Shown here one piece after another: positions 55,111 to 56,255 of a DNA stretch of 64,000 nt (the first letter of the stretch is position 1; each line of letters opens with the position of its first letter). The position numbers were made by a program, and so were the translations under genes. The notes under the pieces are model-generated. The model had not been told where the DNA came from, searched no databases, and was given only the letters and a program-made list of their open reading frames with translations. The stretch lies in NCBI RefSeq assembly GCF_055900595.2, contig NZ_CM148325.1. The stretch is one strand, 5' to 3'.

Positions 55111-56255
55111 TTAGCGGCCGCCCATAATGGCAATATAATCCTGCGTCCAGCGACTGTAGGGAACAAACTTGCCCCCTTCTGCTATAGGCGTTTTCCAGAA
55201 GGCGATTTTATCGAAATAGTTAAAACCGTTTGTTTCACAACCTTTTTCGCCTAATAACGGACTGGCTTTACACCCTTCCGGCACTACCGGTAACGAGCCA
55301 AACCAGGCCGCCACATCGCCCTGCACTTTTGGCGTTAATGACCAGTTCATCCATTTGTAGGCGCAAACCGGATGTTTCGCTTCGCTATGTAGCATGGTGG
55401 TGTCAGCCCAACCGGTAACGCCCTCCTTCGGGAAAACGGTAGCGACAGGCTGGCCTTCGGCTTTCAGGGCGTTGGCCTGGTAGGGCCATGCACTGGAAGC
55501 AACCACACCCTCGTTTTTGAAATCGCTCATTTGCACGGTAGTGTCATGCCAGTAGCGATGGATCAAACTATGTTGATCGCGCAGCACTTTCAGCACCGCC
55601 TGGTACTGTTCTTCGGTGAGTTGATACGGATCGCTGATGCCCAACTGCGGCTGAGTGGCTTTAACGAACAACGCAGCATCCGCAATATAAATAGGGCCAT
55701 CATAAGCCTGAACGCGGCCTTTATTGCTCTTACCGTCCGGCAGATTCTGCGCAACAAAAACCACTTGCCAGCTATCCGGCGGCGTCGGGAAGGTTTTCGT
55801 GTTGTACATCAGCAGGTTCGGCCCCATTGGTAAGGAGTGCCGTAAACTTTGCCGCCAACGTTAAACCAGTCGCCTTTAACCACACGCGGATCGAGCGCTT
55901 TCCAGTTGGGAATCAATGCGGTACTAATCGGCTGCACGCGTTTACCCATAATCAGGCGCAGCGAGGCATCGCCGGATGCTGTAACCAGATCGTAACCCCC
56001 TTTGGTCATCAGACTGACCATTTCATCGGACGTCGCGGCGGTTTTTACATTCACCGCGCAACCTGTCTCTTTTTCGAATTGCGTTACCCAGTCGTATTGT
56101 TTATCAGTTTGTCCGCGTTCGATGTATCCCGGCCAGGCGATAATATCCAGTCGCCCTTCCGGTTTATCTAAATTGGTAGGTGGTTCGGCGGCGTGAGCGG
56201 TCATTATTGTCATGGTGAGCGCACACAGGCTGCTGCGGGCAAATGTCTTGCTCAT
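55111..56255 (-). pseudogene. ydcS: periplasmic solute-binding protein, frame split by an apparent 1-nt deletion in a G-run
   Basis: ORF 55809..56255 (148 aa, signal peptide, ends ...GTPYQWGRTC*) and ORF 55111..55827 (238 aa, MGPNLLMYNTKTFP...) overlap and together span a complete binding protein. Junction sequence is TACCAATGGGGCCGAACC. Confidence 0.65.

Follow-up and report, generated by a model that had tools for sequence, protein, structure and literature searches.

The split reading frame of ydcS described here is almost certainly a genuine, vertically inherited loss-of-function mutation of a lineage of Escherichia cryptic clade I (ST485, H45). It lies in the window, i.e. the whole 64,000-nucleotide stretch of contig NZ_CM148325.1 that was analysed, which is an Escherichia chromosome segment containing ddp, fdn and narUZYWV genes, a type VI secretion/rhs cluster, ydcSTUV-patD and tehAB, in a gene order that is the reverse of that of K-12. 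The features concerned are as follows, with the basis or state of each in brackets.

55111..56255, minus strand: ydcS pseudogene, for the periplasmic substrate-binding protein of the ydcSTUV ABC transporter (ORFs; PGAP label "frameshifted")
55809..56255, minus strand: 5' ORF of 148 aa, ending ...YGTPYQWGRTC* (ORF list, Pfam)
55111..55827, minus strand: 3' ORF of 238 aa, beginning MGPNLLMYN... (ORF list, Pfam)
55822..55825, minus strand: four-G run, site of the one-base deletion, at codons Trp145-Gly146 (alignments)
55996..56000, minus strand: second five-G run in ydcS, AAA GGG GGT, codons 85-87 (intact here)
54080..55093, minus strand: ydcT, ABC ATPase, intact, 337 aa (length as annotated in relatives)
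53138..54079, minus strand: ydcU, permease, intact, 313 aa (ORF and annotation of relatives)
52354..53148, minus strand: ydcV, permease, intact, 264 aa (ORF and annotation of relatives)
50908..52332, minus strand: patD, gamma-aminobutyraldehyde dehydrogenase, intact, 474 aa (ORF and annotation of relatives)
56500..57906, minus strand: ydcR, GntR/aminotransferase-type regulator upstream of ydcS, intact, 468 aa (ORF and annotation)
25493..26710, plus strand: narY ORF, with a GGG to GG deletion at 26703-26704 (truncated to 405 aa)

The ydcS gene of the window is 1,145 nt long, against an expected 1,146 nt. As stated in the original prediction, a YdcS-type gene is present as two overlapping ORFs in different frames. 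Upon addition of one G, the two become joined into a 381-aa YdcS equivalog. The two ORFs overlap by 19 nt around the minus-strand junction TACCAATGGGGCCGAACC, in which the four-G run at 55822-55825 reads CCCC on the plus strand. In the intact ydcS of strain 2013C-4282, the closest intact relative, and in that of K-12, the corresponding run has five G (CAATGGGGGCCGAAC), the codons at the site being CAA TGG GGG CCG AAC, with TGG GGG CCG encoding Trp-Gly-Pro. Alignment of the window with the intact alleles revealed exactly one G fewer, and the loss of one G from a G-run, predicted for positions 55805-55830, is thereby confirmed, with run lengths taken from assemblies. It was also noticed that aligned E. 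coli encode Gly146 by GGG, GGT or GGA, differing in the third base, so that the five-G run is limited to some backgrounds, the closest intact relatives of the lineage included. The other five-G run of the gene, at 55996-56000 and about 170 bp from the lesion, has its full length in the window.

Upon deletion, the frame is lost after Trp145-Gly146 and a stop is reached four codons on. The 148-aa ORF is made up of the signal peptide and 144 native residues, followed by GRTC from the wrong frame and TGA. Residues 2-238 of the 238-aa ORF correspond to residues 145-381 of YdcS and have no signal peptide; the start of this ORF is a fortuitous ATG, formed by the A of CAA and the TG of TGG, and no AGGAG-like Shine-Dalgarno sequence was found 5' of it. 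A promoter and terminator scan of the operon gave no more hits than the number expected from shuffles.

The repaired product scored 811 bits over residues 3-381 against the NCBIfam equivalog NF041888, which has a curated cutoff of 725 bits, was identical at 379 of 381 residues to the intact YdcS of 2013C-4282 (clade I), and matched PDB 6nlp_A with E = 1.6e-252; thus, 2 amino-acid differences separate the ydcS of the window from the nearest intact allele. With the fragments, the 148-aa ORF aligned to positions 2-93 only of the Pfam profiles SBP_bac_1/SBP_bac_8, at 21-22 bits and under the cutoff, and the 238-aa ORF covered positions 94-264 of SBP_bac_8. A complete binding-protein domain is therefore contained in neither fragment. 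The score and the gene context are those of an NF041888 member, but an uninterrupted frame of about 381 aa is absent, and ydcS in the window is a pseudogene of the YdcS family, not a functional member. K-12 YdcS (b1440; NF041888; crystal structure PDB 6NLP) is encoded by the same gene in the same ydcR-ydcSTUV-patD locus; its frame is intact, whereas that of the window is broken at codons 145-146 and encodes no full-length protein. The polyamine-binding proteins PotD and PotF belong to the same fold family as YdcS (Pfam SBP_bac_8, SBP_bac_1) and gave the best non-YdcS PDB matches of the repaired protein (E = 1e-9 to 1e-19). Assignment as a PotD or PotF orthologue was rejected, as the scores fell far below the equivalog cutoffs (NF007962 and NF007048; 61 versus 636 bits for PotF and 46 versus 582 bits for PotD); YdcS, a paralogue of these two, has no established ligand. 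A periplasmic polyhydroxybutyrate synthase role has been reported for YdcS, and natural plasmid transformation of K-12 on plates was reportedly 6.7-fold lower in a ydcS mutant (review, PMC6135910).

The context of the lesion, ydcR followed by ydcS-ydcT-ydcU-ydcV-patD, matches K-12 in both order and lengths. Near this locus, at about 57985-58220, a degraded hicAB toxin-antitoxin locus was observed; K-12 has both genes, whereas the annotation of the relatives shows just a partial hicB lacking its N-terminus, hicA being absent.

The same lesion was found in eight complete RefSeq genomes (Z0117EC0005, E200086, E400634, E500002, E600003, 100117, 100248 and AST85), which were 100% identical to the window over a 1,281-nt ydcS query and approximately 100% identical across 25 kb. 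They belong to three accession series, CP098223 (dog, Korea), CM1285xx-CM1286xx and AP043644. In both records inspected (Z0117EC0005 and E200086), ydcS carries the PGAP label "frameshifted"; at ydcS none of the eight genomes differs from the window, whose strain differs from them elsewhere. Strains 100117, E200086, E400634, E500002 and E600003 are cryptic clade I, ST485, OND:H45, strain 100117 being entered simply as "Cryptic"; these five documented carriers came from children in Gambia, Mali, Kenya, India and Bangladesh and were isolated in 2007-2008 (PMC13064198). Another carrier was from a dog in Korea. [quoted passage not shown]

Searches of public contigs (NCBI, ENA and Logan, the last being assemblies built straight from sequencing runs) revealed the exact 148-aa product on 260 contigs and the exact 238-aa product on 376. 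The 148-aa product was in 362 index blocks, mostly from contigs of 20-200 kb, sizes typical of short-read drafts. Logan contigs match the window at 100% identity, for 6.4 kb in SRR34555640 and for 4.3 kb in SRR27886137. A 71-nt megablast across the site returned 15 genomes, a count that covers the four-G allele on this haplotype background only; the number is this small because most strains have polymorphisms close by that interrupt the 28-nt seed. In a collection of approximately 15 billion proteins, the exact repaired protein of the haplotype was absent. SNPs separate the carriers from one another while the four-G run is constant, as predicted by descent from a common ancestor.

Over 25 kb, identity of the region to most E. 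coli is only about 96%, an unusual divergence that fits membership of the strain in Escherichia cryptic clade I and not in E. coli sensu stricto. For narY (e.g. 26400-27000), 90-95% identity was observed to 4,785 of 5,414 matching records. The ydcS of more than 5,400 E. coli genomes aligns without the frameshift, and the gene is intact in two other strains, 2013C-4282 and EC42405, which are clade I, a clade in which the commonest genotypes are H45 (PMC10100065). These intact alleles indicate an origin of the deletion inside clade I, along the branch to the ST485/H45 group.

Comparison of the window with Z0117EC0005, the closest complete relative compared, over 63.3 kb of aligned sequence revealed 25 SNPs, two 6-bp repeat-unit differences, one IS200 insertion and two single-base indels. 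No complete carrier among the eight is identical to the window. Among 288 homopolymer runs of at least 5 nt, not one differed in length between the two. Both repeat-unit differences, at window positions 18494 and 36958-36963, are in frame; one (ATCCTC) is in a hypothetical gene beside a leucine-rich-repeat gene, and the other (CGCCTT) is in a large RHS-repeat gene. An extra T at 31086 (CATGG, against CAGG in Z0117EC0005) is outside any homopolymer and intergenic, between yddH and a SUKH-4 immunity gene. The IS200 element is 704 bp long (9394-10097), contains an IS200/IS605-family tnpA ORF (9496..10005, minus strand) and lies just downstream of yddM (higA-like), beside fdnI; Z0117EC0005 has no IS200 at this site, and eight bases of its sequence can be aligned to either flank of the insert. 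A small lipoprotein gene beside the type VI vgrG (about 40109-40464, minus strand) is "frameshifted" in the Z0117EC0005 annotation, and the window has no indel relative to Z0117EC0005 at this gene, making it a second lineage-level pseudogene common to both.

The original prediction had raised the possibility that the ydcS split reflects systematic homopolymer error, and had placed it in one error class with the narY deletion. According to that explanation, the true sequence has five G and the run was under-called through a systematic fault of the assembly. It is consistent with the presence in the window of a second single-G deletion, in narY, that none of the eight complete relatives carries, and with the existence of public assemblies in which another ydcS G-run frameshift is plainly accompanied by errors, as in L013 and L014, where the neighbouring ydcR is also in three pieces. 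However, eight complete genomes belonging to three accession series, Illumina-based hybrids included, have the four-G allele, as do hundreds of contigs of short-read size. Moreover, the 0 of 288 discordant runs contradict a systematic fault, the other five-G run of ydcS is unbroken, and ydcR, ydcT, ydcU, ydcV and patD are all full length; that is, the lesion is not private, and neither homopolymer errors nor broken genes surround it. We therefore regard under-calling as extremely improbable, and for ydcS this explanation is in effect refuted, with four G in hundreds of independent assemblies. Nor does the pairing with narY hold. The narY deletion was found in 0 of the 8 complete relatives, which have an intact gene annotated as narH, whereas the ydcS lesion is in all eight. 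Since one deletion is private and the other lineage-wide, they have separate histories and not a common assembly fault. Even the narY deletion recurs in an independent assembly, the truncated 405-aa product being present in one other, the Logan contig of SRR27886137, which is 100% identical to the window over 4,337 nt; it is private to the strain or a sub-lineage, or possibly the same strain was sequenced again.

If the allele is real, it might also be the off state of a switch, with the G-run acting as a contingency tract and reversible slippage turning ydcS on and off. The lesion does sit in a G homopolymer, and the second five-G run of ydcS is likewise one G shorter in other assemblies. Tracts that switch at useful rates are usually 7-8 nt or more in length, and four or five G is far below this. 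All carriers examined are in the off state, the approximately 15 billion proteins do not include the exact repaired protein, and the allele follows one clonal lineage instead of being scattered; neither a long tract nor the coexistence of on and off alleles in close relatives was found. Phase variation was rejected because the repaired protein of the haplotype was not found in the collection, and we give it hardly any credence. No more credible is the production of full-length YdcS from the split gene by slippage at U GGG GCC, either transcriptional or as a -1 slip of the ribosome. If one G were read twice, exactly Gln-Trp-Gly-Pro-Asn would result, and the native sequence would be regained if the Gly tRNA shifted by -1 from GGC to GGG, this geometry being the sole point in favour of such slippage. 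However, U GGG GCC is not a canonical X XXY YYZ slippery heptamer, transcriptional slippage requires much longer runs, and any such rescue would occur at error-level frequency only. Furthermore, the two-frame arrangement is not conserved, as K-12 and the other aligned alleles outside the lineage are in frame, among them the more than 5,400 E. coli genomes. A programmed frameshift was thus rejected on the grounds of a non-canonical motif and its restriction to one lineage.

A further explanation accepts the loss and attributes it to positive selection in ST485, for example through altered uptake of polyamine-like compounds or DNA. It is favoured by the fixation of the lesion throughout a globally distributed lineage and by the independent inactivation of ydcS in two or more further backgrounds, contigs with an S. 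sonnei label among them. One of these lesions is Q59* (CAA to TAA), found in 193 collection blocks from contigs labelled Shigella sonnei (L016/L017). The other is a five-G to four-G deletion at codons 86-87 on about 20 contigs (e.g. L015, SRR24866248); some of its carriers are assemblies with many broken genes, and some of these deletions may be artefacts. Both lesions are in the same gene as that of the window, but at other positions and in other lineages, and the codon 86-87 deletion is of the same mutational type (a G-run, five to four). On the other hand, hitch-hiking or drift would be expected to give clonal fixation equally well, the independent lesions are consistent with a gene that is simply dispensable, and the transporter genes downstream are undecayed. 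Adaptive loss is thus unlikely, albeit less so than the readings above. In a more specific form, the loss of YdcS would have been selected in the globally spread, plasmid-rich ST485 branch, with the intact ydcTUV-patD working with another binding protein or having a YdcS-independent function. As K-12 ydcS mutants reportedly take up plasmid DNA 6.7-fold less well on plates (PMC6135910), the loss could alter uptake of DNA or polyamine-like compounds; we consider this form slightly more doubtful still. Given the independent lesions in other backgrounds, ydcS appears to be dispensable.

For the inherited loss of function, the following course of events is proposed. The ancestor of the ST485/H45 clade I lineage would have lost one G from the five-G run at ydcS codons 145-146, and the sequence context suggests that this most likely happened by strand slippage during replication. 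The resulting 148-aa product would keep the signal peptide but amount to under half of a periplasmic binding protein with its two lobes, and the remaining 236 native residues could be made only from the internal ATG, with neither a signal peptide nor an obvious ribosome-binding site. As no complete binding-protein domain is present in either piece, the YdcTUV importer is presumably left without its cognate binding protein and would hence be non-functional. The intact state of ydcT, ydcU, ydcV and patD suggests that the loss was relatively recent and that there has been no strong selection to restore ydcS.

The lineage-fixed ydcS frameshift had already been annotated and is an ordinary lineage-specific pseudogene. 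Accordingly, ydcS in the window should be annotated as a pseudogene, left uncorrected and treated as real biology, and its frameshift should not be counted as a homopolymer error of the assembly. The four-G allele provides a simple one-base marker of the ST485/H45 branch of Escherichia cryptic clade I, and the lineage represents a further natural knockout of a transporter gene about which little is understood.
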